NCBI GenBank assembly: GCA_963422735.1 | Contig: OY730476.1 | Location: 4,864,001 to 4,928,000, forward strand | Source of the DNA: Candidatus Latescibacterota bacterium | GTDB lineage: Bacteria; Latescibacterota; UBA2968; UBA8231 | DNA length: 64,000 bases | Direction of reading: 5' to 3' | Part shown: positions 43,309 through 56,739 of the stretch, in pieces | Numbering within the stretch: position 1 is the first letter of the stretch | Layout of the letters: every line of letters starts with the position of its first letter | The notes under the pieces: generated by a model | Database searches by the model: none | What the model saw: only the letters and a program-made list of their open reading frames with translations | What the model was told of the DNA's origin: nothing | Position numbers and translations under genes: made by a program

Positions 43309-44112
43309 TCAGTCGAGTTGGGAGATGGTTTCTCGCACAAACTGCACCGACTTTGTCAGCGCGTCTTTGGGGTCTCCTGCAAGCCCGCACTCGTAGGCCA
43401 GATACCCGTGAAAGCCGATGTCTTTGAGGGCCTGTAAGCCGGCGCGCCAATCGATGTCGCCGGTGCCCGGCTGCAGGCGCGTGTTGTCTGCCATGTGGAC
43501 GTGGGCGACGTGGCGGCCTGCTTGGCGGAAGGCGGCCGGGGTGTCGGTCTCTTCGATGTGCATGTGGAAAAAGTCGCTGAGCAGGGCCACGCCTTGGGGG
43601 CTGCCGGCGCGCTCGATGATTTCGACGCCGTCGGCTTGGCGGCGCAAGAGGTGTTGCTCGTAGCGGTTGAGGGGTTCGAGTAGGAGCAGGGTGCCTTGGC
43701 TAGCAGCATAGGCGGCGAGGTCTTTGACCAGCTCGACGAGCAGGGCCTTCTCTAGGGAAATGGCGTCTTGGAGAGGCGAAAGGTCGGGAATGCGCGGCGG
43801 CCCAAAGATGGGGGGGACGATCTGGCCGACGGCTTGGAAGTGCCCGCAGGCTGCTAGTTGGCGGCGGGTTTCGGCGAGGCTGTTGGAGCGCTTGCGCGGG
43901 TCTGGGTCGAGCCAGTCAAAGGTCTGTTGGCCGCAGACAGAAGCGATCTTGATGGAGCGGCCGGCGAGGGCCTTTTCGTACTGTTCGATGTGGTCGTACA
44001 GGCGTGCGCTGCCGCTGACCTCTAGACCTTCGATGGCGAGCGATTCGGCGAAGTCGAGCTTTTCTGCGAGGCTTTCGCCGGGCAGCAGCCCTTCCTGTAA
44101 GGCAATTTTCAT
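43309..44112 (-). CDS. Sugar phosphate isomerase/epimerase (xylose-isomerase-like TIM barrel)
   Basis: EPLNRYE, DFFHMHIEE, HVHMADN, PGTG. Confidence 0.9.
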   Translation of the reverse strand: MKIALQEGLLPGESLAEKLDFAESLAIEGLEVSGSARLYDHIEQYEKALAGRSIKIASVCGQQTFDWLDPDPRKRSNSLAETRRQLAACGHFQAVGQIVPPIFGPPRIPDLSPLQDAISLEKALLVELVKDLAAYAASQGTLLLLEPLNRYEQHLLRRQADGVEIIERAGSPQGVALLSDFFHMHIEETDTPAAFRQAGRHVAHVHMADNTRLQPGTGDIDWRAGLQALKDIGFHGYLAYECGLAGDPKDALTKSVQFVRETISQLD

Positions 44113-46218: not shown

Positions 46219-46929
46219 ATGGACGACGAGAAACAGCTAGAAAAAGAAAAAAAGGAATTTGCCGCGGCCATGGGGCACGATCCGTCCTTGACAACGGTGG
46301 ATGATAAGGGGCGAACTGACCTGCACCATGCAGCAACATTGAACCTGCCCGCTCTGACTACATCCCTGCTGAAAAGCGGTATGGATGTCCACGCCAAGGA
46401 CGAGGAAAAGATGACGCCGCTGCATATTGCGTCGATGCGGAATGCGGTTGCGGTTCCGAGGATTTTGCTGCACAGCGGGGCCGATGTCAACGCCAAGGAC
46501 AAGGACGGCCTGACGCCGCTGCATATTGCGTCGATGCGGAATGCGATTGCGGGTGCGGAGTTTTTGCTCGACAAAGGGGCCTATATCAACGCGAAGAACT
46601 ACTACAACGGCCTGACGCCGCTGCACATTGCGACGATGCGGAATGCGATTGCGGGTGCGAAGTTTTTGCTGCAGCACGGCGCAGATGTCGATGCGAAGAA
46701 CTACCACGACGGCCTGACGCCGCTGCATATTGCGACGATGCGGAATATTTTTTACGTCGCCGAGCTTTTGCTGCAGCACGGGGCCGATGTCAACGCCAAG
46801 ACCCGCGACGGCTGGACGCCGTTGTTTCTTGCCGTACACAAAAAAAATATGGTCAGTTCGTTGCTCCGTTTCCTTGGGCTGGAGACGAGGATGGTGCGTT
46901 TGTTGCGCCAGCATGGGGGCGAGGAATAA
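46219..46929 (+). CDS. Ankyrin repeat protein
   Basis: About six G.TPLHIA...GADVNAK repeats; GAGGAG RBS. Confidence 0.93.
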   Translation: MDDEKQLEKEKKEFAAAMGHDPSLTTVDDKGRTDLHHAATLNLPALTTSLLKSGMDVHAKDEEKMTPLHIASMRNAVAVPRILLHSGADVNAKDKDGLTPLHIASMRNAIAGAEFLLDKGAYINAKNYYNGLTPLHIATMRNAIAGAKFLLQHGADVDAKNYHDGLTPLHIATMRNIFYVAELLLQHGADVNAKTRDGWTPLFLAVHKKNMVSSLLRFLGLETRMVRLLRQHGGEE

Positions 46930-46945
46930 AACAGTTGGAGGACTT

Positions 46946-48736
46946 ATGAGTGAGGGACAACACCTCTTGGCGCTGCCGCAGGGGACGCGCATCCGGGACT
47001 TTGAGTTTCACCGCGTCCTCGGCCACGGCGGGTTTGGGCTTACCTATTTGGGGTGGAATGTCGCGCTGGATATTCCGGTGGCGATCAAGGAGTATCTGCC
47101 GGCGGACTTGGCTACCCGCAGAAGCGATCTGTCGGTGGTGCCGCAGTCGTCGCCGTCGTCATCGGATTTCCAATGGGGCTTGGAACGCTTCTTGGACGAA
47201 GCGCGCACGCTGGCGCGTTTCCAACATCCCCACATCGTCCGGGTCCATCACTTCTTTGAGGCGCATAGCACGGCGTATATCGCAATGGACTATGTGGAGG
47301 GGGAGGACTTGTCGGCGTATCTGGCGCGCAAAGGGACGCTGAGCGAAGCCGAACTCAAGGGCATTCTGTATCCGTTGCTGAGTGCCTTAGCAGTGATCCA
47401 TCGGGCTGATTTTCTGCATCGGGACATCAAGCCGGGCAATATCGTCCTTCGAGACGCAGACGGTTCGCCGGTGTTGCTGGACTTTGGTTCGGCGCGTCAG
47501 GCAGTCGGGGCTAAGAGCCGTTCGGTTACGTCGATAGTAACGCCGGGGTATGCGCCGATCGAGCAGTATTCGAGTCGGGGGCGTCAAGGGGCTTGGACAG
47601 ACATTTATGCGTTGGGTGGGGTGTGTTATCGGGCGTTGACCGGGGATGTGCCCGACGATGCGACGGATAGGGTGCGGGAGGATCCGCTCGTTCCGGTATC
47701 TCGGCGGTGTGGGGGTCGGGTGAGTGGTTCGTTTTTGTCGGCGATTGATGCGGCGTTGTCGGTGGATGAGGGGGATCGTCCGCAGGGTGTTGAGGCTTGG
47801 CGGGAGGCGATGGAGTCGGATGGGGCGGCAGGGGAGGAACTGGCGGATGCTTCGGCGGAAACAGAGAAGGATGCTTCGGATGATGCGACACTCGTGGGGC
47901 GTAGTGATCAGGACGCGCCGCCACTGGATCGGCCGCAGAAGAAGACCCAACTCAAGCGGTTTGCCGTAGCCTTGGGGGTGGTTGCTTTCTTGGTTGGGGG
48001 CAAAATGTATGTTGATCATGCCGAGCAGGTGGCGTTGGATCGTCAGCGTGAGGAACAGGCGGCGTTAGAGCGTCAGCGTGAGGAACAGGCGGCATTGGAT
48101 CGTCAGCGTGAGGAGCAGGCATTTGTCGCAGAGGTGGGGCGCACACCACATCCTAAGGGGATGAACAAGGGTAAGACTGACCTGCACATTGCAGCGGAAT
48201 TGAACCTGCCCGTGCTGACTAGATCCCTGCTGGTACAGGGGGCGGATGTCCACGCCAAAGACAACGTTGGCTTGACGCCGCTGCACTGGGCGGCGATGAT
48301 GGATGCGTCTTTGACGGCGGAGTTGTTGCTGGCACAGGGGGCGGATATCCACGCCAAAGACAACGATGGCCGGACGCCGCTGCACTATGCGGCGGATGCT
48401 TTTTCGACGGCGGAGTTGTTGCTGGCACAGGGGGCGGATGTCCACGCCAAAGACAACGATGGCCGGACGCCGCTGCACTATGCGGCGATGATGGATGCGT
48501 CTTTGACGGCGGAGTTGTTGCTGGCTGAGGGGGCGGATATCCACGCCAAAACCAACGTTGGCAGTACGCCGCTGCACTGGGCGGCGATGATGGATGCGTC
48601 TTTGACGGCGGAGTTGTTGCTGGCACAGGGGGCGGATGTCCACGCCAAAACCAACGTTGGCAGTACGCCGCTGCACTATGCGGCGGATGCTTTTTCGACG
48701 GCGGCGGTGTTGCGTCGTTATGGTGCCCGAAGGTGA
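46946..48736 (+). CDS. Receptor-type Ser/Thr kinase: kinase-TM-coiled coil-ankyrin repeats
   Basis: LGHGGFG, VAIKE, HRDIKPGN, DFG, YAPIE; TM FAVALGVVAFLVGG; about six ankyrin repeats; GGAGG RBS. Confidence 0.93.
   Translation: MSEGQHLLALPQGTRIRDFEFHRVLGHGGFGLTYLGWNVALDIPVAIKEYLPADLATRRSDLSVVPQSSPSSSDFQWGLERFLDEARTLARFQHPHIVRVHHFFEAHSTAYIAMDYVEGEDLSAYLARKGTLSEAELKGILYPLLSALAVIHRADFLHRDIKPGNIVLRDADGSPVLLDFGSARQAVGAKSRSVTSIVTPGYAPIEQYSSRGRQGAWTDIYALGGVCYRALTGDVPDDATDRVREDPLVPVSRRCGGRVSGSFLSAIDAALSVDEGDRPQGVEAWREAMESDGAAGEELADASAETEKDASDDATLVGRSDQDAPPLDRPQKKTQLKRFAVALGVVAFLVGGKMYVDHAEQVALDRQREEQAALERQREEQAALDRQREEQAFVAEVGRTPHPKGMNKGKTDLHIAAELNLPVLTRSLLVQGADVHAKDNVGLTPLHWAAMMDASLTAELLLAQGADIHAKDNDGRTPLHYAADAFSTAELLLAQGADVHAKDNDGRTPLHYAAMMDASLTAELLLAEGADIHAKTNVGSTPLHWAAMMDASLTAELLLAQGADVHAKTNVGSTPLHYAADAFSTAAVLRRYGARR
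48031..48120 (+). repeat. 3 x 30-bp intragenic repeat (AL[D/E]RQREEQA)
   Basis: Read directly in DNA and protein. Confidence 0.9.
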
Positions 48737-48751
48737 ACAATTGGAGATGCT

Positions 48752-48829
48752 GTGAGCGAAGAGCAATATCCTCTTCACGCCTTGCCCCAAGGAAGACGGC
48801 CGCGGTGGGTATGGGGGTCTTGGTTTTGA
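48752..48829 (+). pseudogene. Relic 5' end of a second kinase paralog
   Basis: VSEEQYPLHALPQG resembles MSEGQHLLALPQG; upstream aacaattggag resembles aacagttggag at 46930. Confidence 0.6.
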
Positions 48830-48877
48830 TCGGCCTTCTTAGCTGTTGACGCCAGCCTGAACGTACACGGAGAGGTT

Positions 48878-50503
48878 ATGCTCAAACAATACCTATCTTT
48901 TATCGTGCATTTCGCCGTGGCTTGGTTCCTTTGCCCAAGTCCCGTCTCGGCGCAAATAGATGTGGATGTTGTTGCTGAAAGCATCGTGCGGGTTCGCGCT
49001 TATGACGATCACAAAGTCGTGGTTGAAGGGAGCGGTTTCGTCGTCAACGAAAAAGGATACGTGCTGACGAATGCCCATCTCCTAGCCAAGGCAGAGGGCT
49101 TGACCGTATGGTCCCTGAAGACTGGGGCCGAGGTTGTGGCGCAGCGGGTGTTTGCCAGCCGCGACATGAACTTGGCCCTGTTGCACGTACCGGGCTTGAA
49201 CTTGCCGCCCCTCAGCTTATCCGAGCAAGGAGCCGATGTCGGCCGGGCCGTGCAGACGCTGCGATTCGGCGCAGCGGGGGATGTTCGGCTTTCTCGCGGG
49301 ACGATAGGCACATACCAAGACGTCTTCGGCAAGAAATCAAGCCGTCCGGTGGCACACCTGCTCCAACACAATGCCTTGATAACGGCCCAAGCCTTCGGTA
49401 TGCCCTTGTTCAACGAATGCGGGGATGTCGTCGCCATCAATCTGCCAGACCAAGGCAGCGGCTCGTGGCCGTTTCGGAAAGCGAAACCAAAAGGAGCCAT
49501 TTTTGCCTTGCGCAGCGGCGACATCATAGCTGCACTCGAAGAGCGAGAAATCGCCCATACGGTGGTTGAGGCAGAATGCCTGAGTGCGGTTGAGCGCGCT
49601 GAACGCGATAGAAAAGCGGCCGCCGATAGCCTCAAGGTGGCTAAGGCGCAGGCCGACTCGGCAAGCAAAGCCGCAGAAAAGGCTAAGGCGCAAGCCGACT
49701 CGGCGAGCAAAGCCGCAGAAAAGACCAAGGCGCAGGCCGACTCGGCGAGCGAAGCCGCAGAAAAGGCCAAGGCCAAAGAGAAGGCCACGCGGCAGATGGC
49801 CGAACGGGAGAAAGCGCGGGCCGATTCCGCAAAGAAAGCAGTGGCCGACAGTCTCCAAGCGGCTAAGACCAAAGCCGATAGCCTGAAGATGGCCAAGGCA
49901 CGAGCCGATTCCGCGAGTAAGGCGGCCGCCGACAGTCTCAAGGCGGCCAAGGCCAAAGCCGACAGCCTCCAAGCGGCCAAAGATCAGGCCGCGCAGCGGT
50001 TGAAGTGGGGTATTGCCGCAGGGGCGGGACTGGTGCTGCTCGCACTTTTCGGTTGGTGGCTTTCCTCGCGGCGGAAAAAGGAGCAATTACAGAGCGCCGA
50101 GTCCCGCTTGAGCGAAGCCGAACAAACGGCTGAAGCAGCGCGCCAAGCCGTGGCGAACGCACCGCAAGCCGCGCCTTTCAGATGTCTATTGGAAGGCCAA
50201 GACCGCACCGGCCGGCCATTCGCATTGACCATACCGGCATTGGTGTTGGGTGATCGGGCCGGTGTGACGCTCGGGAGAAGCCCGGCCAGTGCCGAATTTA
50301 TCATCGACCACGAAGAAGTCTCCCGCGAACACATCCGGCTTGCGTGTGCTGACGGCGAACTCTACGCAGAGGATTTGAACGCCCTGAATAGCACAAAGTT
50401 GAATGGCCGCTTGCTCAACCCTCGCGAGCAGGTACTGTTGCAAAACAATGATCGGCTTGAGATAGGGCCAGTCGTTTTTACTGTGCGTTTAGTTCAGGAG
50501 TGA
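48878..50503 (+). CDS. Signal peptide - inactive trypsin-like domain - Ala/Lys coiled coil - TM - FHA
   Basis: GSGFVV, TNAH retained, QAFGMP instead of GNSGGP; FHA LGR...SREH...DLNALNST. Confidence 0.85.
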   Translation: MLKQYLSFIVHFAVAWFLCPSPVSAQIDVDVVAESIVRVRAYDDHKVVVEGSGFVVNEKGYVLTNAHLLAKAEGLTVWSLKTGAEVVAQRVFASRDMNLALLHVPGLNLPPLSLSEQGADVGRAVQTLRFGAAGDVRLSRGTIGTYQDVFGKKSSRPVAHLLQHNALITAQAFGMPLFNECGDVVAINLPDQGSGSWPFRKAKPKGAIFALRSGDIIAALEEREIAHTVVEAECLSAVERAERDRKAAADSLKVAKAQADSASKAAEKAKAQADSASKAAEKTKAQADSASEAAEKAKAKEKATRQMAEREKARADSAKKAVADSLQAAKTKADSLKMAKARADSASKAAADSLKAAKAKADSLQAAKDQAAQRLKWGIAAGAGLVLLALFGWWLSSRRKKEQLQSAESRLSEAEQTAEAARQAVANAPQAAPFRCLLEGQDRTGRPFALTIPALVLGDRAGVTLGRSPASAEFIIDHEEVSREHIRLACADGELYAEDLNALNSTKLNGRLLNPREQVLLQNNDRLEIGPVVFTVRLVQE

Positions 50504-50506
50504 ACA

Positions 50507-51772
50507 TTGCACAGCTTCAGGCGCTGGGGTCTCGTCTTTTTTCTTTTTGCGCTTCTGCTGCCGTGCCGCTCCGTTGCCGCGCCAGACTTTGACGCGCTTG
50601 AGAAGAGCGTGGTACGCATTGTAAGGCAAACCAACGAGGGGCTTGGTGCTGGCACTGGATTCGCCATAAATGACCAAGGCTATATTGCGACAAATGTCCA
50701 CGTCATAGCCGACGCCAACTCGATCACAGCCATCCCAACAAACTCCAACGAGCTGTACGATGTGGAAGTAATCGCCACATCCCAAGAACTCGACCTCGCA
50801 ATCGCCTATATCCCAGATATAACCCTGCCGCCCATCGCGTTTTCGCTCGCACCAGCCATAAAAGGACAAAAGGTATGGTCCATAGGCTATCCTGGTGGGG
50901 CCGACCGCAACAGACCGGCTCACGACCCGACTGTGCAAGACGGCGTCATTGGAAGGGTTTTTTTGGGTGCGTGGCACGCGCAAGAACTCAGGATTATTCA
51001 GCACAATGCGCCGACCAATCCGGGCAACAGCGGCGGCCCTCTACTAGATGATTGTAGCCGGGCAGTTGGCGTCAATACGCAGGCGTCTCTCGTCGTCATT
51101 AGCAGTCCATCCAGCGGGGTGACGCGGGTACCCCATGCGGCGGGCATTTACTGGTCTTCGCATATAGAGGAATTGGCAAACCTGTTGGACGGCCATGGCA
51201 TTACTTTTCAATCAGAGCGCGACGATTGTGTGGCGGCTAGTGGCACGGGAAGTTCTGGCGAGGCCGAACAAGCGCGGGCGCAGGCAGAAGAAGCGAGCGA
51301 TCAGTTTCTCTTCTGGCTGCTATTGTTGGGAGGTGTGGCCTTGGTCGCCTTGGTCGTTGCCTCGAAGAAGCCGCGCCAGCTCGTCCAGCAGATGAGTCGG
51401 CGCACAACCAAAAAGGAAGGGGTAGAAGTTGTTGCAAAAGGCCCAAACCACGGCCTCGTGCTGGCCGGTTTTGACGGTCGCGGCAACCGCATTTGCATTG
51501 AGTTGTCGCCGGCCCGATTTGCCGGTCAACGCTTGGGGCTTTCGCTCGGCAGGCATCCCGATTTGGTGGATGAAATTGTCGCGGATGAAAACGTATCGAG
51601 ACGGCATCTGCGAATTGCAGCCGAGGGCGATCAACTTTACGTCGAAGATTTGAACTCCAGCAATGGGACATTTCTGAACGAGCAGCGCCTGTCGCCCTTT
51701 GAGCCGGCGCGGTTGGACTATGGTACCAAAGTCGCGCTGGGCGATTTGGTGCTCGTGGCGTCCAAACTTTAG
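50507..51772 (+). CDS. Signal peptide - trypsin-like serine protease - TM - FHA
   Basis: GTGF, TNVHV, DLAI, PGNSGGPL; FHA LGRH...VSRRH...DLNSSNGT. Confidence 0.9.
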   Translation: MHSFRRWGLVFFLFALLLPCRSVAAPDFDALEKSVVRIVRQTNEGLGAGTGFAINDQGYIATNVHVIADANSITAIPTNSNELYDVEVIATSQELDLAIAYIPDITLPPIAFSLAPAIKGQKVWSIGYPGGADRNRPAHDPTVQDGVIGRVFLGAWHAQELRIIQHNAPTNPGNSGGPLLDDCSRAVGVNTQASLVVISSPSSGVTRVPHAAGIYWSSHIEELANLLDGHGITFQSERDDCVAASGTGSSGEAEQARAQAEEASDQFLFWLLLLGGVALVALVVASKKPRQLVQQMSRRTTKKEGVEVVAKGPNHGLVLAGFDGRGNRICIELSPARFAGQRLGLSLGRHPDLVDEIVADENVSRRHLRIAAEGDQLYVEDLNSSNGTFLNEQRLSPFEPARLDYGTKVALGDLVLVASKL

Positions 51773-51786
51773 ATGGGGTACTGGGC

Positions 51787-52623
51787 GTGAAAAAACGCAG
51801 CCGAGAGATCAACATCTTTAGCATGTCTGCGCTCGATCTGTTCGCATCGGCTCTCGGCGCGTTCATACTCATTACCATAGTGCTGCTGCCCTTTTTTCCA
51901 AATCTGAACATGTCGGGACAGGCAAAGGCTAAGCTGGCGCAGGCAAAGGCCGAATTGGCGCAGGCAAAGGCCGAATCAGAGCGGGTGAAGGCTAAGCTGG
52001 AGCGGGAGAAGGCCAAAGCTTCAAAAACAAAAGGTCAGCTTGAAAAACGGGTGAAGGCTTTGCAACAGGAGATAGACAACACAACCGTTTTATTGGGCAT
52101 TGAGACGAAGGCGAAGAAGTTTGTGCTCGTCATAGATATGTCGGGCAGTATTTATCAGCCTCGACAGCAAGATTATCGTCAGTTCATAACATTGTCCATA
52201 CAAGACATGCTCGCTGCTTTTAAGTCGGAAATAGAGGTCTGTCTCATTGGTTTTCAAGGCTCGAATCTGCTGCACTATTGGCCTCAAAATAGAGGTTACT
52301 TTCAAGTAGAAAGGAACACGCGAGATCGTGTTGTAGGACAGGTAAACGACTGGATGAGATTGGTGGATGGCGGCACGCCCACACGCGCCGCCTTGCTGGC
52401 GGCGATTGCACTGCACCCCGAAGAAATCATCCTGTTGAGCGATGGTGCGCCCTCAGAAGATTGGCGCATGGTCGTGCGGACTGTAACGGCTGAAAATAGG
52501 CGGAAAATACCCATACACGCCGTAGCTGTTGGCAATTACGTGGCAGACCGAAAATTTATTGACTTTCTAGTGCAGCTAACAGAGCGGAATAATGGGTCCG
52601 TTGTAGGAGCCAAACCAGGTTGA
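51787..52623 (+). CDS. TM - coiled coil - vWA domain protein (MotB/ExbD-like N-terminal helix)
   Basis: SALDLFASALGAFILITIVLLP TM with Asp; MIDAS DMSGS, GGT, LSDG. Confidence 0.85.
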   Translation: MKKRSREINIFSMSALDLFASALGAFILITIVLLPFFPNLNMSGQAKAKLAQAKAELAQAKAESERVKAKLEREKAKASKTKGQLEKRVKALQQEIDNTTVLLGIETKAKKFVLVIDMSGSIYQPRQQDYRQFITLSIQDMLAAFKSEIEVCLIGFQGSNLLHYWPQNRGYFQVERNTRDRVVGQVNDWMRLVDGGTPTRAALLAAIALHPEEIILLSDGAPSEDWRMVVRTVTAENRRKIPIHAVAVGNYVADRKFIDFLVQLTERNNGSVVGAKPG

Positions 52624-52624
52624 T

Positions 52625-52993
52625 ATGAACAAGTCGAGATTTTCCGTGTACCGAATCGGTCGCGGCTCAGGTGTGGACATCCAGATTGACGATGATTCGG
52701 TCTCTCGCGCCCACGCCGAGTTAATTACAACGCACAGCGGCTCTTACTATCTCACCGACTGCGCCAGCAGCGGGGGTAGTTATGTGGCGAGGGACGGCGA
52801 GTGGAGATGCATCAGGCAAGAATTTATAAGCCCGACAGATGCGATTTTGCTCGGTCATTATCAGACGACCGCACCCGCACTTATCGCTATGGCCGCGCAA
52901 AGCAAGCGCCGTTTAGGAGGGGGGACATCCCTGCCCAAGGGACCAGTGCAGCGCAACATAGATACGGGCGAGATCATTGGCGAGGAGGATTGA
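52625..52993 (+). CDS. Small FHA domain protein
   Basis: IGRG...VSRAHA...DCASSGGS. Confidence 0.85.
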   Translation: MNKSRFSVYRIGRGSGVDIQIDDDSVSRAHAELITTHSGSYYLTDCASSGGSYVARDGEWRCIRQEFISPTDAILLGHYQTTAPALIAMAAQSKRRLGGGTSLPKGPVQRNIDTGEIIGEED

Positions 52994-52994
52994 C

Positions 52995-53780
52995 ATGGCA
53001 AAAGGGCAAGGGGTAGATATAGAGCAACGCCTAAAAGCAAGCGGCTTCAGCCTGTTAGGGGGCGTCATATCTATAGCGATTATGAGTTTTATTTTTGACC
53101 GTCCCGATTCTGCGGCGGGTGCTTTTCTGCTAGATCGCCACACGGATAATTTCCCCTACCCGTTTACGATCCAAAACGTCATGTGGCTTATGTTTTGGAT
53201 CGGCTGCGGCGAGCTTTGGGTGCGATTCAACCAATCCAAGCTAGAAATGGAGCAGATGTCGAAACGCTATCTGCCGGAGGACGATGATGTTATGTTGCGG
53301 GCGCGGGATTTGGGTTCCTTTTATCAGAAGGTGCGGCCCATAGCGGAGGAGCGCACCTTCTTTTTACAGCGTCTGATCATGCGCTGTATTTTGCAGTTTC
53401 AGGGGAGCCACTCCGTCAATCAAGCCAACTCGCTATTGAATTCTTCTCTCGAATTATTTCAGCACGAGCTCGAACTCAAATACGCGATGTTGCGCTATCT
53501 CGTATGGCTGATACCAACCTTGGGGTTTATCGGCACTGTGGTGGGCATTGCGTTCGCGTTGGACTATGCGGCCAACATTGAAGATCCACAGGATCCGACC
53601 TTGCTGGCCGAGATTACGGGTCGGCTGGGCGTCGCGTTTTACACGACCTTGCTCGCGTTGGTCCAATCGGCACTGCTGGTGTTTGCGCTGCACATTGTGC
53701 AAAGCCGGGAAGAGATGTCCCTAAACCAATCCGGCCAATACTGTTTGGACAACTTAATCAACCGGCTTTACGAAAAATAA
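52995..53780 (+). CDS. MotA/TolQ/ExbB proton-channel family protein
   Basis: IPTLGFIGTVVGI and LGVAFYTTLLAL signature helices; GAGGAGG RBS. Confidence 0.9.
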   Translation: MAKGQGVDIEQRLKASGFSLLGGVISIAIMSFIFDRPDSAAGAFLLDRHTDNFPYPFTIQNVMWLMFWIGCGELWVRFNQSKLEMEQMSKRYLPEDDDVMLRARDLGSFYQKVRPIAEERTFFLQRLIMRCILQFQGSHSVNQANSLLNSSLELFQHELELKYAMLRYLVWLIPTLGFIGTVVGIAFALDYAANIEDPQDPTLLAEITGRLGVAFYTTLLALVQSALLVFALHIVQSREEMSLNQSGQYCLDNLINRLYEK

Positions 53781-53833
53781 GTTGCGGGCGAGACACCTGC
53801 GCTGCCGGAATAACTCAAAGATAGGAGGGCACC

Positions 53834-54481
53834 ATGCCTGTTTATCGCGGACCCGATGGCAAAATCATTGAAGAGAAAACCGATAAGCGGAAAGAGGATA
53901 CCAAACCAACGGACGTGGCCAACAGGCCGTTGCCGCCGGCACCACCGGGCGGCGAGCAACTCGCCGGGGAGGGGCGTTTAGATGCGCCCACGCAGCGGAT
54001 GGGCGAAAGCCGGTCCAATGTCGGCGAGGAGGAAAGGACGCGCTTGGTAGGTGGGCGGCGGCGGCGAGAAGACGAGGAGCGTCGGCAGGAACGCGCCGAA
54101 GAGGATCGCGGCATGGATGATCCGGTTGTGGGGTGGTTGGTCGTTGTGGGGGGGCCGGGCAAAGGGCGGGCCGTGCAATTGGGTTATGGTTCCAATTCGG
54201 TTGGTCGCGGGGAGACCGATCGAATTAAGCTCGATTTTGGCGACGATCAGATTTCGCGCAATAGCCATGCCGTTGTTACGTATGATCCGCGTGGCCGAAA
54301 ATTTTACGTGCAACACGGCGGCGGCACCAATCTGACGTATCTCGCGGATCAGCCCGTGCTCGCACCGACTGAGTTGCCGGCGCTGACCCACATCGGTATC
54401 GGCAATACGATTCTCCGTTTCGTGCCCCTGTGCGGTGCCGAGTTTGATTGGCAGGATACAGAAGGAAGCGAAGCGCGATGA
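53834..54481 (+). CDS. FHA domain protein with disordered Thr-bearing N-terminus
   Basis: PVVGWLVVVGGPGKG...VGR...ISRNSHA...GTN. Confidence 0.88.
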   Translation: MPVYRGPDGKIIEEKTDKRKEDTKPTDVANRPLPPAPPGGEQLAGEGRLDAPTQRMGESRSNVGEEERTRLVGGRRRREDEERRQERAEEDRGMDDPVVGWLVVVGGPGKGRAVQLGYGSNSVGRGETDRIKLDFGDDQISRNSHAVVTYDPRGRKFYVQHGGGTNLTYLADQPVLAPTELPALTHIGIGNTILRFVPLCGAEFDWQDTEGSEAR

Positions 54482-55557
54482 ACGAATTAGACGGGCGCTT
54501 TGCCGCGCGGCAAATTCCCGGCAAACGGGAGTATCAAGAGGATGATTACGGCCTGCTGGATGGGCGCGATCTCGGCATAGATGGCAACGAGCACTCCATG
54601 TTGTTGGTCGCCGATGGCATGGGCGGCCACGTTGGCGGCGCGACTGCTAGCGGCCTTTTGATTAGGACCTTTGTCGAGGAGTATCCGCAGGCTTCCGGGC
54701 CAATCGTCGATCGGCTCCGAGACTGTCTCGAAGCGGCTAATAAAGCCATTGCCGATGCCATTGCCGAAAATCCCGCACTCGACGGCATGGGTTCGACCTT
54801 GGTCGCGGCGGTTGTTTCAAGCGAAGGGCTGAACTGGATCAGCGTGGGCGACTCCCCGCTGTGGTTGTTCCGCGAGGGTAAATTGGAGCGTTTGAATGCA
54901 GACCACTCTATGGCTCCGGTTCTTGCGGATCTCGTGGCAATGGGGCGCATGACCGCAGAGGAAGCCGCTCGGGATTCAAGTCGGCATTCGCTGCGCTCGG
55001 CGGTCATGGGCAATGACATACATCTGATTGACGCGTCGTCACAGCCGGTGGCGGTTGATAAGGGCGACCGGCTGCTATTGGCGAGCGATGGTTTGATGAC
55101 CCTCAGCGATCAAGAGATCGCGGATATCCTCAAGAAAACGCAAGACGCGTCATTGGAGGATAGCGCCGCGGCCCTTATCCAAGCTGTGGAAGCTGCCGAA
55201 CATCTTCAACAGGACAATACGACCGTCTTGTTGTACACGCCGGAAGCTGGTGGGGATGCGGGATTAGCTGCGGCTGCTATTGGCGAGGGGGAAGATTTTC
55301 AGGATAAGCCGCGATTAAAACGAAAACGCAGGGGCAGACTGTTGAGGATGTTGCTATGCGTTGTCGTCTTATTGGGGGTGCTTTATTGGCTTAGGCAAGG
55401 CGAAAATGCGGCTGTTGAGCCGCCGGCGGCAGCTGCTGTGGGCACACTGGCTTCTCAGGAGGAGGCGACAGAGGACAGCATTCATGCGGGGGTAGAGGAA
55501 GCCGAGCTTAACGACCCGCGAGAAGAGGGTGTTGGGGTCGAGGGAGGGGAGAGGTGA
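54478..55557 (+). CDS. PP2C/PPM Ser/Thr phosphatase with C-terminal TM
   Basis: QEDD, VADGMGG, VGDS, ASDGL, QDNTT; basic patch then TM. Confidence 0.93.
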   Translation: MNELDGRFAARQIPGKREYQEDDYGLLDGRDLGIDGNEHSMLLVADGMGGHVGGATASGLLIRTFVEEYPQASGPIVDRLRDCLEAANKAIADAIAENPALDGMGSTLVAAVVSSEGLNWISVGDSPLWLFREGKLERLNADHSMAPVLADLVAMGRMTAEEAARDSSRHSLRSAVMGNDIHLIDASSQPVAVDKGDRLLLASDGLMTLSDQEIADILKKTQDASLEDSAAALIQAVEAAEHLQQDNTTVLLYTPEAGGDAGLAAAAIGEGEDFQDKPRLKRKRRGRLLRMLLCVVVLLGVLYWLRQGENAAVEPPAAAAVGTLASQEEATEDSIHAGVEEAELNDPREEGVGVEGGER

Positions 55558-55893: not shown

Positions 55894-56739
55894 ATGTTTC
55901 GCTCGCTATCACCGGGGGCTATCGGCGCAAGCGTAGAGAGCCTCGCAGACGGGCTTGATTTGGCCGCACGGCACGGATTCGCCGGGTATCACTTTAGCAT
56001 TGGCGAAGTCGCGGCCATGGGCGCGGAAGAGGCCCTCGCATTGGCCGAGCGCAAGGGCGTACGCCTGTCGGCATGGGGATTTCCCGTTGATTTTCGCGGG
56101 GAGGAGGCCACATACCAAGCGAGCTTGGCGCAGTTGCCGGAGTTGGCAAAAGTGGCAGCGGTGTTGGGGGTGCAACGGACGGCGACTTGGATCATGCCGG
56201 CCTCGGACGAGTTGACGTACCAAGAGAATTTCGCCTTTCACGTCGAGCGGCTACGGCCGGCCGCCGCGGTACTTGCCGAAGAAGGCGTGTGGTTAGGCTT
56301 GGAATACGTCGCGCCGAAAACGCTGTGGGCGAGCAAAAAGCACGAGTTTGTCCACACAATGGAGCAAATGGAGCAACTATGCCGAGCCGTAGGCGAGAAC
56401 GCGGGCTTTCTGCTCGATAGCTGGCATTGGTACACGGCCCACGAAACCGCTGCGGATGTGCGTCGCTTGCGCCCCCAGCAAGTGGTGGATGTACACGTTA
56501 ACGACGCACCGTCCGGCGTAGAGATTGACGAACAGCTCGACAACGTGCGCGACTTGCCCGGGGCGACCGACGTAATCGACATCGAGGCATTCCTAAGCGC
56601 CTTGCAGCACATTGGCTACGACGGACCAGTCATGGTCGAGCCGTTCAGTCAGCGAGTGCGCGCCATGGAGCGGGAGGAGGCTGTGGCGGCTACGGCCGCC
56701 GCGCTGGGCCGCGTGTGGAAGCAAGCCGGACTTGCGTGA
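55894..56739 (+). CDS. Sugar phosphate isomerase/epimerase family protein
   Basis: LGLEY, LDSWHW, VHVNDA, PG.T, VEPF. Confidence 0.88.
   Translation: MFRSLSPGAIGASVESLADGLDLAARHGFAGYHFSIGEVAAMGAEEALALAERKGVRLSAWGFPVDFRGEEATYQASLAQLPELAKVAAVLGVQRTATWIMPASDELTYQENFAFHVERLRPAAAVLAEEGVWLGLEYVAPKTLWASKKHEFVHTMEQMEQLCRAVGENAGFLLDSWHWYTAHETAADVRRLRPQQVVDVHVNDAPSGVEIDEQLDNVRDLPGATDVIDIEAFLSALQHIGYDGPVMVEPFSQRVRAMEREEAVAATAAALGRVWKQAGLA

Follow-up and report, generated by a model that had tools for sequence, protein, structure and literature searches.

We identified a rare but widely scattered bacterial operon in which a TolQ/MotA-type channel subunit and its unusual Asp-bearing partner recur with a kinase, a phosphatase, phosphothreonine-reading FHA proteins and membrane-anchored protease-like proteins, so that it looks like an ion-driven motor switched by protein phosphorylation. 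It lies on the forward strand at positions 46219–55557 of a 64,000-nt stretch (the window) of Candidatus Latescibacterota bacterium (contig OY730476.1, positions 4,864,001–4,928,000). A preliminary description from sequence alone had reported nine tightly packed, intact genes here with these domains, and this observation is confirmed. Its interpretation, an envelope-spanning machine in which ion flux drives or gates extracytoplasmic proteolysis, is only partly supported. Pairing of a TolQ-like channel with an Asp-helix vWA protein had already been proposed in 2025 as a new 5:2 motor class (PMC12204202), although for what appears to be a sister family and without the signaling genes. None of our literature searches returned the phosphothreonine module or the pseudoprotease linked to such a motor.

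Gene content of the operon

ORF listing gave nine co-oriented genes without internal stops (g1–g9), separated by spacers of 16, 141, 3, 14, and 1 nt, a 17-nt overlap, 53 nt, and a 34-nt overlap if g9 starts at the first TTG. Domains were assigned with Pfam and transmembrane (TM) segments with a hydropathy scan. The cluster maps onto no PADLOC or NCBIfam system model.

The first gene, g1 (46219–46929), encodes a stand-alone ankyrin-repeat protein of 236 aa (Ank_2, E 2.5e-47) without signal peptide or TM. Ankyrin parts are specific to Latescibacterota-type loci, and no stand-alone ankyrin ORF over 200 aa was found in any of the 60 full loci described below, indicating a lineage-specific accessory rather than part of the conserved core. 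The second, g2 (46946–48736), encodes a receptor Hanks Ser/Thr kinase with a cytoplasmic kinase domain (Pkinase 1.5e-35, residues 20–238), one TM (339–357), a short coiled coil, and extracytoplasmic ankyrin repeats (Ank_2 2.7e-48, residues 413–503 and on); the motifs HRDIKPGN, DFG, and VAIKEY are visible in its translation.

The next two genes encode bitopic proteins with a trypsin-fold domain, a TM, and a cytoplasmic FHA domain, and the preliminary distinction between a “dead” and an “active” trypsin is correct. In g3 (48878–50503; Trypsin_2 1.9e-16, FHA 1.6e-13), a signal-like N-terminus precedes a trypsin-fold domain with H-N-M at the His/Asp/Ser positions, followed by about 135 aa of repetitive coiled coil, with a 42-nt tandem repeat at 49639–49773, and a TM (378–396). 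Only 4 of 56 members of this family have Ser at the nucleophile column, identifying it as a pseudoprotease. In contrast, g4 (50507–51772; Trypsin_2 1.4e-26, FHA 7.4e-16) is an active-type serine protease by sequence, with a signal peptide, the triad H65-D96-S175, a TM at 267–285, and no PDZ domain, and Ser is kept in 41 of 43 sequences of the g4-type alignment.

The putative channel partner, g5 (51787–52623), has a short basic N-terminus, an ExbD/TolR/MotB-like TM helix (18–36 in the hydropathy scan) with Asp17 (the “transpore helix”, TPH), a coiled-coil stalk (44–98), and a periplasmic vWA head. The Pfam VWA match was just under the cut-off (7e-05; 23.5 bits against 23.8), but the AF2 model, high-confidence over residues 100–278, confirms the fold, with 246 PDB matches in Foldseek at E ≤ 0.001, the best being the ITIH1 vWA (4.1e-9). 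D17, L18, A20, S21, A22, G24, and F26 are invariant in 27 sequences, and the MIDAS residues D117, S121, and D219 are invariant in 24 vWA-type sequences. A weak ZorB match (E 0.003) covers residues 5–66.

The small soluble FHA protein g6 (52625–52993; 122 aa, FHA 9.8e-12) carries a conserved C-terminal T114-G-E motif, with T114 conserved in 96% of 57 sequences, and its stop overlaps the g7 start by 17 nt. The product of g7 (52977–53780; 267 aa, MotA_ExbB 1.4e-10) is a TolQ/ExbB/MotA-family channel subunit with three strong TMs, one weaker hydrophobic helix, and a family-specific C-terminal motif, GQYCLDNLINRLYEK. TolQ and ExbB are the best folds for its AF2 model (mean pLDDT 79.9), although these Foldseek matches are weak, with none at E ≤ 0.001, and a PDB sequence search found only PomA at E 0.38. 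T181, T187, T223, and T224 in the last two TM helices are near 100% conserved, whereas no cytoplasmic threonine is conserved, so any FHA link to the motor must be indirect or phospho-independent.

The soluble FHA protein g8 (53834–54481; FHA 3.1e-06) has a conserved N-terminal MPVYRGPDG motif, a disordered region, an FHA domain, and a conserved C-terminal F..C...F.W motif. The disordered region holds T69 (K-T-R-[LIV]), invariant in 28 sequences and 99% conserved in 75, as well as T53 (93%) and T16 (89%); like T114 of g6, these lie within otherwise variable segments. Finally, g9 (54448–55557) encodes a PP2C Ser/Thr phosphatase (PP2C_2 3e-09; NCBIfam Stp1_PP2C 3.2e-41, under the cut-off) with conserved ADGMGGH and QDN motifs and a C-terminal TM anchor (297–315); its true start may be a few codons downstream of the first TTG.

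Conservation across bacterial lineages

The MotA-like gene was found in 19 of 41 related genomes, in 1–3 copies. All 15 loci fetched from relatives of the same class keep MotA and g8, and most keep the rest of the core (PP2C, TPH partner, trypsin-FHA, and kinase), with varying kinase positions. In a wider search of one genome per species, 543 of 584 pattern matches encode a relative, and the best 80 loci were kept, from Latescibacterota, Gamma- and Alphaproteobacteria, Acidobacteriota, Binatia, Rhodothermales, Gemmatimonadota, and Acidimicrobiia. Among the 60 loci of at least 20 kb, 59 keep g8, the most constant neighbor of g7, 55 the PP2C, 54 a Hanks kinase (1–5 copies), 54 the TPH partner, 53 a trypsin-TM-FHA gene, and 42 g6. 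All five main partners lie on the same strand within 8 kb in 43 loci, whereas 17 lack at least one within the set distance, including 5 without a PP2C hit and 6 without a kinase hit. A Rhizobium leguminosarum plasmid locus has a different X-TM-FHA protein instead of a trypsin one. At least three gene orders recur, for example t-T-V-f-M-F-P-K, f-M-F-P-t-T-V-K, and f-M-F-P-V-K-T (M, F, and P being MotA, g8, and PP2C). The preliminary description had named a lack of co-occurrence in other genomes as grounds for rejection; instead, the set recurs across at least eight phylum-level groups with shuffled gene order.

In 12 loci of the nearest other MotA subfamily, phmmer found no kinase, PP2C, or trypsin gene. 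These counts rest on our own ORF calling and on phmmer with the proteins of the window, which misses distant homologs, including an FHA domain that Pfam later found in at least one of these sister-family loci, and related loci are not independent samples.

The constant core is a TolQ-like channel plus a single-pass partner with a nearly invariant ExbD-like Asp helix, the only part of g5 conserved across phyla. The genome encodes six PF01618 genes and seven ExbD genes; four of the channels have ExbD within 1 kb, but g7 has no ExbD or MotB gene nearby, leaving g5, whose N-terminus aligns with the genome’s own ExbD helices, as its only possible Asp-bearing partner. The vWA head, by contrast, is not constant: among TPH proteins found by a strict motif, 20 of 64 carry a beta-rich domain with no Pfam hit. 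Sensor domains of the kinases also vary, which fits outside signals: among nine kinases we found FGE-sulfatase in five, Sel1 in three, PG_binding_1 in two, PDZ in one, and beta-helix in one, while a tenth ORF was ankyrin only. Proteolysis cannot be the general output suggested in the preliminary description, because the conserved trypsin-like member is a pseudoprotease and 22 of 62 loci have no intact H-D-S triad.

A proposed motor putatively controlled by phosphorylation

We consider it more likely than not that the cluster belongs to a conserved, rare system built around a TolQ/MotA-type ion-driven motor placed under Ser/Thr phosphorylation control. Our analysis shows that g7 is a TolQ/ExbB-fold channel subunit, that g5 supplies the only ExbD/MotB-like Asp helix available to it, and that these genes travel with g8, a PP2C phosphatase, one to five receptor kinases with exchangeable outside sensor domains, and one or two bitopic trypsin-fold-TM-FHA proteins. 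The remainder is inferred, including physical interaction, stoichiometry, ion flow, phosphorylation of the proposed threonines, and FHA binding. By analogy with the solved MotAB, ExbBD, and TolQR complexes and the 2025 models of TolQ-like/TPH-vWA pairs, a g5 dimer would sit inside a g7 pentamer, and ion passage over Asp17 and the conserved g7 threonines would turn one against the other.

From the anatomy of the locus, we further infer that a receptor kinase, triggered outside the cytoplasmic membrane, would phosphorylate conserved threonines in the disordered parts of g8 (T69 above all) and of g6 (T114). The FHA domains of g3, g4, g6, and g8 would read these marks and so tether the bitopic trypsin-fold proteins and soluble adaptors to the motor, switching it on or coupling it to its periplasmic load, with PP2C resetting it; that the four FHA domains assemble the complex, as first suggested, likewise remains inference. 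In this view, the periplasmic output is carried by the head on the g5 stalk, here a metal-dependent vWA binding domain, and by the trypsin-fold domains, with the pseudoprotease g3 most likely acting as a binding or sensing module and cleavage by g4 as an optional add-on. The cellular purpose could be envelope surveillance, remodeling, adhesion, or defense.

Alternative explanations

An envelope-level anti-phage or inter-bacterial conflict system, Zorya-like in logic, is possible but doubtful, and defense is neither supported nor excluded by our data. Receptor kinases or periplasmic heads would detect an invader or envelope damage, phosphothreonine signaling would open or engage the motor, and the cell would answer by dissipating its membrane potential and/or by periplasmic proteolysis. 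Consistent with this, distribution is patchy among close relatives (13 of 24 genomes in the genus and 5 of 12 in a second family, with up to three copies per genome), phylum labels need 12 changes on the MotA tree where 6 is the minimum, there are many fast-changing sensor domains, including FGE-sulfatase, and there is weak similarity to the ZorA and ZorB models. Some loci abut defense-type genes: of 10 flanking ORFs from seven loci, not chosen blind, three matched strongly (type III restriction enzyme 1.8e-167, PDC-S28 3e-112, and PDC-S01 6e-51), and the Rhizobium locus lies next to an OLD-TOPRIM ATPase and a UvrD-like helicase. However, a blind random sample of 20 flanking ORFs from 13 loci gave only two strong PADLOC hits, a generic reverse transcriptase and PDC-S02, no PADLOC system model fits, and the ZorA and ZorB hits are marginal (9.7e-06 and 0.003). 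The operon’s own flanks within the window are metabolic genes, as confirmed by the FAD oxidoreductase flank of a close relative, no nuclease, NADase, or other classic effector is present, and relatives were absent from 50 697 phage records and found only once in 72 556 plasmids.

A housekeeping-type periplasmic force transducer in the manner of TolQRA, ExbBD-TonB, or the Agl-Glt gliding motor is slightly less likely still. Here the g5 stalk and head would pull on, or anchor to, a peptidoglycan or outer-membrane ligand to remodel or stabilize the envelope or to drive adhesion or surface movement, with the kinases only tuning it. The TolQ/ExbB fold of g7, the intact MIDAS, the g5 stalk (a coiled coil here and a Pro-rich TonB/TolA-like linker in Acidobacteria), the OmpA-like gene that ends the sister family, and the force transduction proposed for TPH-vWA proteins (PMC12204202) favor this reading. 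FHA-bearing bitopic proteins are reportedly listed among Agl-Glt parts (PMC11761067), and g4 and g6 give low-scoring GltG hits. However, the system is rare (188 clusters at E ≤ 1e-30 among 1.84 billion representatives) and patchy even within a genus, unlike a housekeeping function, no outer-membrane partner gene is conserved in the loci, and multiple copies per genome with swapped heads and sensors point to specialized, changeable inputs and outputs. That a generic kinase/phosphatase/FHA envelope-regulatory cluster, like the mycobacterial FhaA-FhaB-PstP-PknB region, merely lies beside an unrelated MotA/vWA pair is very unlikely and close to refuted. Although g8 resembles FhaB/FipA (49.2 bits, against an NCBIfam FhaB cut-off of 125 bits), STK, PP2C, and FHA genes are common neighbors of many things, and kinase number and position vary, the association survives gene-order shuffling across these phylum-level groups, the kinase, phosphatase, and trypsin genes were absent by phmmer from the 12 sister-subfamily loci, and M-F-P is the most constant gene string.

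Gene content and predicted topology of the operon

The nine genes (g1–g9) lie as + strand ORFs between positions 46219 and 55557 of the window, separated by spacers of 16, 141, 3, 14 and 1 nt, a 17-nt overlap, 53 nt and a final overlap, and none is interrupted. Pfam searches confirmed every domain named in the preliminary description, whose observation holds: ankyrin repeats in g1, a protein kinase followed by ankyrin repeats in g2, a trypsin-like peptidase followed by FHA in g3 and g4, vWA in g5, FHA in g6 and g8, MotA/TolQ/ExbB in g7, and PP2C in g9. The vWA match of g5 (23.5 bits) falls just below the 23.8 cut-off, but the fold is confirmed by an AF2 model with residues 100–278 at high confidence and 246 PDB matches at E ≤ 0.001, led by vWA domains.

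A hydropathy scan gave the topology assumed in the preliminary description, with the kinase, the PP2C and all four FHA domains placed in the cytoplasm, and the ankyrin repeats of g2, both trypsin-fold domains, and the stalk and vWA head of g5 placed outside the cytoplasmic membrane. At the catalytic positions g3 has H-N-M, whereas g4 has H-D-S. g5 begins with a short basic segment and a helix, EINIFSMSALDLFASALGAFILI, that carries Asp17.

Scans for promoters and terminators were uninformative (6 promoter-like sites against 4.5 expected), and a search for sequencing runs returned 20 in 13 studies, with no RNA run among them.

Co-occurrence of the genes across bacterial genomes

Among 41 related genomes, including that of the window itself, the MotA-like gene occurs in 19, in one to three copies (13 of 24 genomes in the genus and 5 of 12 in a second family). 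In 15 loci fetched from these relatives, tblastn with the window's proteins found MotA and the FHA protein g8 in all, and PP2C, the TPH partner (the g5-type protein with the Asp-bearing transpore helix), trypsin-FHA genes and one to several kinases in most, with the kinase genes moving from one end to the other. A scan of one genome per species gave 584 pattern matches, of which 543 encode a relative, and the best 80 loci were kept. Their records are labelled Latescibacterota, Gemmatimonadota, Gammaproteobacteria (SAR86, Pseudohongiella, Thiotrichaceae, Chromatiales, and Azotimanducaceae), Alphaproteobacteria, Binatia, Vicinamibacteria, Thermoanaerobaculia, Bryobacterales, Rhodothermales and Acidimicrobiaceae; those of the nearest relatives are labelled Candidatus Latescibacterota.

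We searched our own ORF calls of these loci with phmmer, using the window's proteins as queries. Among the 60 loci of at least 20 kb, g8 was found in 59, PP2C in 55, a kinase in 54, the Asp-helix partner in 54, a trypsin-FHA gene in 53 and the FHA protein g6 in 42, and all five core partners lie on the same strand within 8 kb of MotA in 43. Gene order is shuffled between clades (e.g. try-try-partner-FHA-MotA-FHA-PP2C-kinase, FHA-MotA-FHA-PP2C-try-try-partner-kinase, and FHA-MotA-FHA-PP2C-partner-kinase-try), the classical sign of functional rather than inherited linkage. As a control, the phmmer screen found no kinase, PP2C or trypsin gene in any of 12 loci of the nearest other MotA subfamily. 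The preliminary description had stated that absence of co-occurrence in other genomes would refute it; the genes do co-occur elsewhere, and chance juxtaposition was rejected. A database protein (P0018, 384 aa) annotated by Pfam as FHA plus MotA_ExbB, which had appeared to be a natural fusion, is a frameshifted read-through of the overlapping g6 and g7 genes, in which the FHA part runs into out-of-frame sequence before the MotA part, and it provides no Rosetta-stone evidence.

Constant and variable components

The MotA-like protein is very conserved (58–92% identity across phyla) and has a family-specific C-terminal motif. It has no conserved cytoplasmic threonine, but T181, T187, T223 and T224 in its last two membrane helices are essentially invariant. 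In the partner g5, only the first 40 residues are conserved across phyla, with D17, L18, A20, S21, A22, G24 and F26 invariant in 27 sequences, and D17 also invariant in a second alignment of 24. The most faithful neighbour of g7 is g8, which has a conserved N-terminal motif, a variable disordered stretch with three conserved threonines, the FHA domain and a conserved C-terminal motif. The threonines are T16 (89% of 75 sequences), T53 (93%) and T69 (99%), the last being invariant in a 28-sequence alignment in the context K-T-R-[LIV]. g6 has a conserved T114-G-E in its tail.

Other parts vary between loci. The g5 stalk is a coiled coil in most loci and Pro-rich in Acidobacteria. Among 64 TPH proteins found by a strict motif in 61 of the 80 loci, the head is a vWA in 38, a beta-rich domain in 20 and something else in 6. 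Among the vWA-type heads, the MIDAS residues D117, S121 and D219 are invariant. The beta-rich head (e.g. loci L065:12203-12916, L070:12462-13208, L074:15601-16335, and L103:15127-15918) spans ∼110 aa, has the motifs D-x-D-L-H-V and EEDN..GPG.E.W and no Pfam hit at E ≤ 0.05, and looks like an undescribed domain riding on a motor axle. The coiled-coil stalks of g3 and g5 are encoded by tandem DNA repeats of 42 nt (49639–49773) and 21 nt (51919–52014), respectively, and orthologues of g5 differ in length mainly here (266–354 aa), so stalk length seems free to vary by repeat gain and loss.

The trypsin-fold proteins fall into two types. The g3 type has lost the nucleophile (only 4 of 56 have Ser), whereas the g4 type keeps Ser in 41 of 43. 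Of 62 loci with at least one full-length gene of this kind, 40 have at least one intact triad and 22 have none. Presence of the active protease g4 and of g6 showed a suggestive but unproven co-variation (both in 33, neither in 16, g6 only in 10, and g4 only in 1), with only 6 independent pairs on the tree and a median p of 0.5.

The kinases carry FGE-sulfatase (5 of 9), Sel1 (3), peptidoglycan-binding (2), PDZ or beta-helix domains; a tenth ORF initially classed as a kinase was ankyrin only. Ankyrin is peculiar to the Latescibacterota-type loci, and the stand-alone g1 has no counterpart over 200 aa in the 60 loci. The ankyrin repeats of g1 (46412–46801) and g2 (48228–48685) are near-identical at the DNA level (102-nt and 99-nt periods, 80–89% matches), suggesting recent repeat expansion or exchange between the two genes.

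A divergent version is carried by an apparently cultured rhizobium (locus L148, Rhizobium leguminosarum BT01 plasmid pRlBT01d, 151375–176055), with PP2C, a g8-like FHA protein and a kinase on one strand, and a PP2C-like protein, a g6-like FHA protein, MotA and a TPH protein on the other. These are followed by a 180-aa and a 1610-aa secreted protein without Pfam hits, a signal-X-TM-FHA protein, in which a different secreted domain precedes the TM-FHA part, and a second kinase. An OLD-TOPRIM ATPase and a UvrD-like helicase (a Gabija-like pair) lie just upstream.

The channel and its putative partner

g7 belongs to the MotA/TolQ/ExbB family (PF01618), scoring 41.5 bits against a gathering cut-off of 22.9 (E 1.4e-10), and 43 bits, again over the cut-off, in the whole-genome search. 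Its AF2 model (mean pLDDT 79.9) is nearest to TolQ and ExbB: the top Foldseek rows are all TolQ, ExbB or PomA, although these matches are weak, with a best E of 1.6e-3 (9avi_A), none at E ≤ 0.001 and TM-scores reaching 0.70 by target (8vlw_B). Sequence searches of the PDB found nothing significant (PomA, E 0.38).

The window's genome has six PF01618 genes and seven ExbD genes (PF02472). Four channels have ExbD genes within 1 kb, whereas none of the seven ExbD matches lies near g7, and g5 has no ExbD or OmpA Pfam hit. The N-terminus of g5 nonetheless aligns with the genome's own ExbD helices, with the Asp one column off in the automatic alignment, and gives a weak ZorB hit over residues 5–66. 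A sixth MotA/ExbB-family gene of the same genome (37.2 bits; G000:C1:844092-844313, outside the window, locus L154) also has no ExbD gene nearby, and a short ORF just downstream (139 aa) has a hydrophobic N-terminal helix; this may be another non-canonical motor pair. Complex prediction of g7 with g8 from two alignments gave no answer (score 0.00), which says nothing either way.

Relationship to described systems

The closest published description is the "second family" of vWA proteins proposed in 2025 as putative 5:2 motors (PMC12204202), in which TolQ-like genes without tolR, exbD or motB neighbours lie next to genes, mostly in heterologous pairs, for single-pass proteins with an Asp-bearing helix, a stalk and a periplasmic vWA head, with an Idiomarina example. 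The window shares the tolQ-like gene next to an Asp-helix vWA gene, the absence of tolR/exbD and the conserved threonines in the channel helices. It has a single g5, however, and of the 60 loci of at least 20 kb, 52 have one partner gene, 3 have two and 5 have none; the head is also exchangeable. The main text of that paper mentions no kinase, phosphatase, FHA protein or trypsin-like protein, although its gene-neighbourhood figure and tables, which lay outside our search, may show FHA neighbours.

Scoring the MotA profile on 400 gammaproteobacterial genomes (one of the 57 with matches being flagged unpublished) gave 8 genomes with strong matches (E ≤ 1e-83) and 49 in a clearly separate tier (best E-values 1.7e-27 to 6.8e-9). 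Twelve loci of that tier (L136–L147, gammaproteobacterial; best E-values about 1e-19 to 1e-27) fit the published description. Their usual order is a TPR protein, a PEGA plus FGE-sulfatase protein (∼700–800 aa), the MotA-like gene, a ∼450-aa protein, one or two TPH-vWA genes of 330–360 aa (helix FSLSFLDC..CGFGA) and an OmpA-like gene, and no kinase, PP2C or trypsin was found by phmmer. In the one case where Pfam found a domain (L146:4958-13312, with two TPH-vWA genes), the ∼450-aa protein ends in an FHA domain (E 2.3e-11). This is probably the family drawn in Fig. 4c of PMC12204202, whose main text does not mention the FHA or FGE-sulfatase neighbours, but the equation of the two is our inference. 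On this reading, the window's system is a sister of that family, sharing the FHA link and the FGE-sulfatase sensor theme, whereas the kinase, the phosphatase and the trypsin-TM-FHA proteins are particular to the window's clade.

Like the solved 5:2 ion-driven motors MotAB/PomAB, ExbBD-TonB and TolQR-TolA, the operon encodes a PF01618 protein and a partner helix with an Asp near its cytoplasmic end, but there is no ExbD, MotB or OmpA-like periplasmic domain and no TonB/TolA-type third subunit, and none of those motors is known to be wired to a Hanks kinase/PP2C/FHA module. Zorya also uses a MotAB-like pair for something other than flagella or uptake. PADLOC gave only marginal hits to ZorA2 (9.7e-06, over 89 profile positions) and ZorB (0.003), with no other Zor model matching any of the nine proteins and no system-level match. 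Zorya comprises ZorA with a long C-terminal tail, ZorB with a peptidoglycan-binding domain, and ZorC/D or ZorE effectors, whereas g7 is only 267 aa and lacks the tail, g5 has a vWA head and no ZorC/D/E-like genes are present.

The threonine phosphorylation pathway of the H1-T6SS (PpkA/PppA/Fha1, TagQRST) uses a receptor Hanks kinase, a PP2C eraser and an FHA reader to trigger assembly of an envelope machine, as would the present system, and the TerY-P triad shares the vWA, kinase and PP2C combination. The TagH equivalog model (TIGR03354) scored 33.7 (g4) and 26.0 bits (g6) against a cut-off of 120.25, the nine proteins show no T6SS core family in Pfam or NCBIfam, and by topology the vWA here is extracytoplasmic and fused to a motor helix rather than a soluble TerY. 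In the Agl-Glt gliding complex of Myxococcus, a TolQR-like motor is reportedly associated with bitopic proteins bearing a cytoplasmic FHA domain, GltG and GltJ (PMC11761067). The GltG model gave only low-scoring, FHA-level hits (16.5 and 20.7 bits against 650), no other Glt genes are present, and the periplasmic domains here are trypsin-fold, not TonB-C-like. Membership of HtrA/DegP/DegS was rejected because g3 and g4 have no PDZ hit, with a TM plus FHA in its place, and a best NCBIfam score of 73.4 bits against 416; g8 likewise scored 49.2 bits against the 125-bit cut-off for mycobacterial FhaB/FipA (NF049868). By the features tested, the cluster is not Zorya, HtrA, T6SS-TagH, FhaB/FipA or TerY-P. 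Literature searches returned no paper linking a MotA/TolQ-type channel with kinase, PP2C, FHA and trypsin-like genes; PMC7159879 describes other vWA systems.

Proposed mechanism and possible roles

The gene content, its conservation and the sequence features are shown by our analysis, whereas assembly, ion-driven rotation and phosphorylation control are inferred and none of the steps below is demonstrated. By analogy with the solved MotAB, ExbBD and TolQR complexes, and with the AF3 models reported for TolQ-like/TPH-vWA pairs (PMC12204202), we infer that a g5 dimer sits in a g7 pentamer and that ion passage over Asp17 turns one against the other. The phosphorylation layer is inferred from the anatomy: an active-looking Hanks kinase and a PP2C with visible, conserved motifs, four FHA domains, all cytoplasmic, and four conserved threonines in disordered segments of the two soluble FHA proteins. 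In the simplest reading, a receptor kinase would mark g8 and g6, FHA domains of the bitopic proteins and of the adaptors would read the marks and assemble round the motor, this assembly would engage or unplug the motor, and PP2C would reset it. The periplasmic output would be the g5 head and the trypsin-fold domains, and since the pseudoprotease is the more constant of the two, binding or sensing is more likely than cleavage as the general activity. The interpretation in the preliminary description, an envelope-spanning phospho-Thr-controlled machine in which ion flux drives or gates extracytoplasmic proteolysis, is supported only in part.

The system is rare: a profile search of 1.84 billion representatives found 188 at E ≤ 1e-30, 1565 at 1e-10 and 3387 at 1e-3. 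It is patchy even within a genus and sometimes present in several copies, and phylum labels need 12 changes on the MotA tree against a minimum of 6, although MAG labels are unreliable. These traits suit an accessory, possibly conflict-related role, but direct tests were weak. No PADLOC system fits, a phage collection gave no relatives, and one plasmid record in 72,556 matched. A blind random sample of 20 of 49 candidate flanking ORFs gave 2 strong defense-model hits, whereas 10 of 18 candidates chosen after their first residues had been seen gave 3. We therefore keep the mechanical reading as the best explanation, and treat defense and envelope force transduction as rival statements of purpose.

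What distinguishes the operon from the recently proposed motors is a conserved, putative phosphothreonine control layer and a stalked pseudoprotease, neither described in the literature searched. Known 5:2 motors (flagellar stators, Ton, Tol, gliding motors, and Zorya) are switched on by docking to their load, and none is known to be under Ser/Thr phosphorylation control. It is possible, though tentative, that this is the first 5:2-type motor whose engagement is switched by Hanks-kinase/PP2C/FHA signalling, with interchangeable receptor kinases outside the membrane deciding when a TolQ-like pentamer turns an Asp-helix axle, which carries an interchangeable periplasmic head (vWA or a new beta-rich domain) next to stalked pseudoprotease/protease modules. 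In effect, it would be a signal-gated mechanical actuator in the bacterial envelope, possibly an envelope immune sensor. The conserved genetic coupling makes this idea testable through clear point mutants (g5 D17N, g8 T69A, kinase-dead g2, and g4 S175A), and at least two cultured carriers appear to exist, Gammaproteobacteria bacterium LSUCC0112 (locus L070) and R. leguminosarum BT01. If the sister tier is the 2025 family, those motors belong to a wider group in which FHA proteins are a shared feature and the periplasmic head is modular. Our analysis also gives a function-oriented reading for a widespread pseudoprotease with a long stalk.

Genomic context

The neighbours on both sides of the operon are ordinary metabolic genes (dehydrogenases, xylose-isomerase-like TIM-barrel proteins, and an FAD oxidoreductase), as the FAD oxidoreductase flank of a close relative confirms. 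Two proteins that by eye look like sugar-phosphate isomerase/epimerase (xylose-isomerase-like TIM barrel) family members flank it at 43309–44112 (−) and 55894–56739 (+). The downstream one recurs after the cluster in several relatives (7 of the 80 loci, e.g. L026–L030, and L023 among the 15 loci from related genomes), and the insertion site is therefore conserved within the genus.
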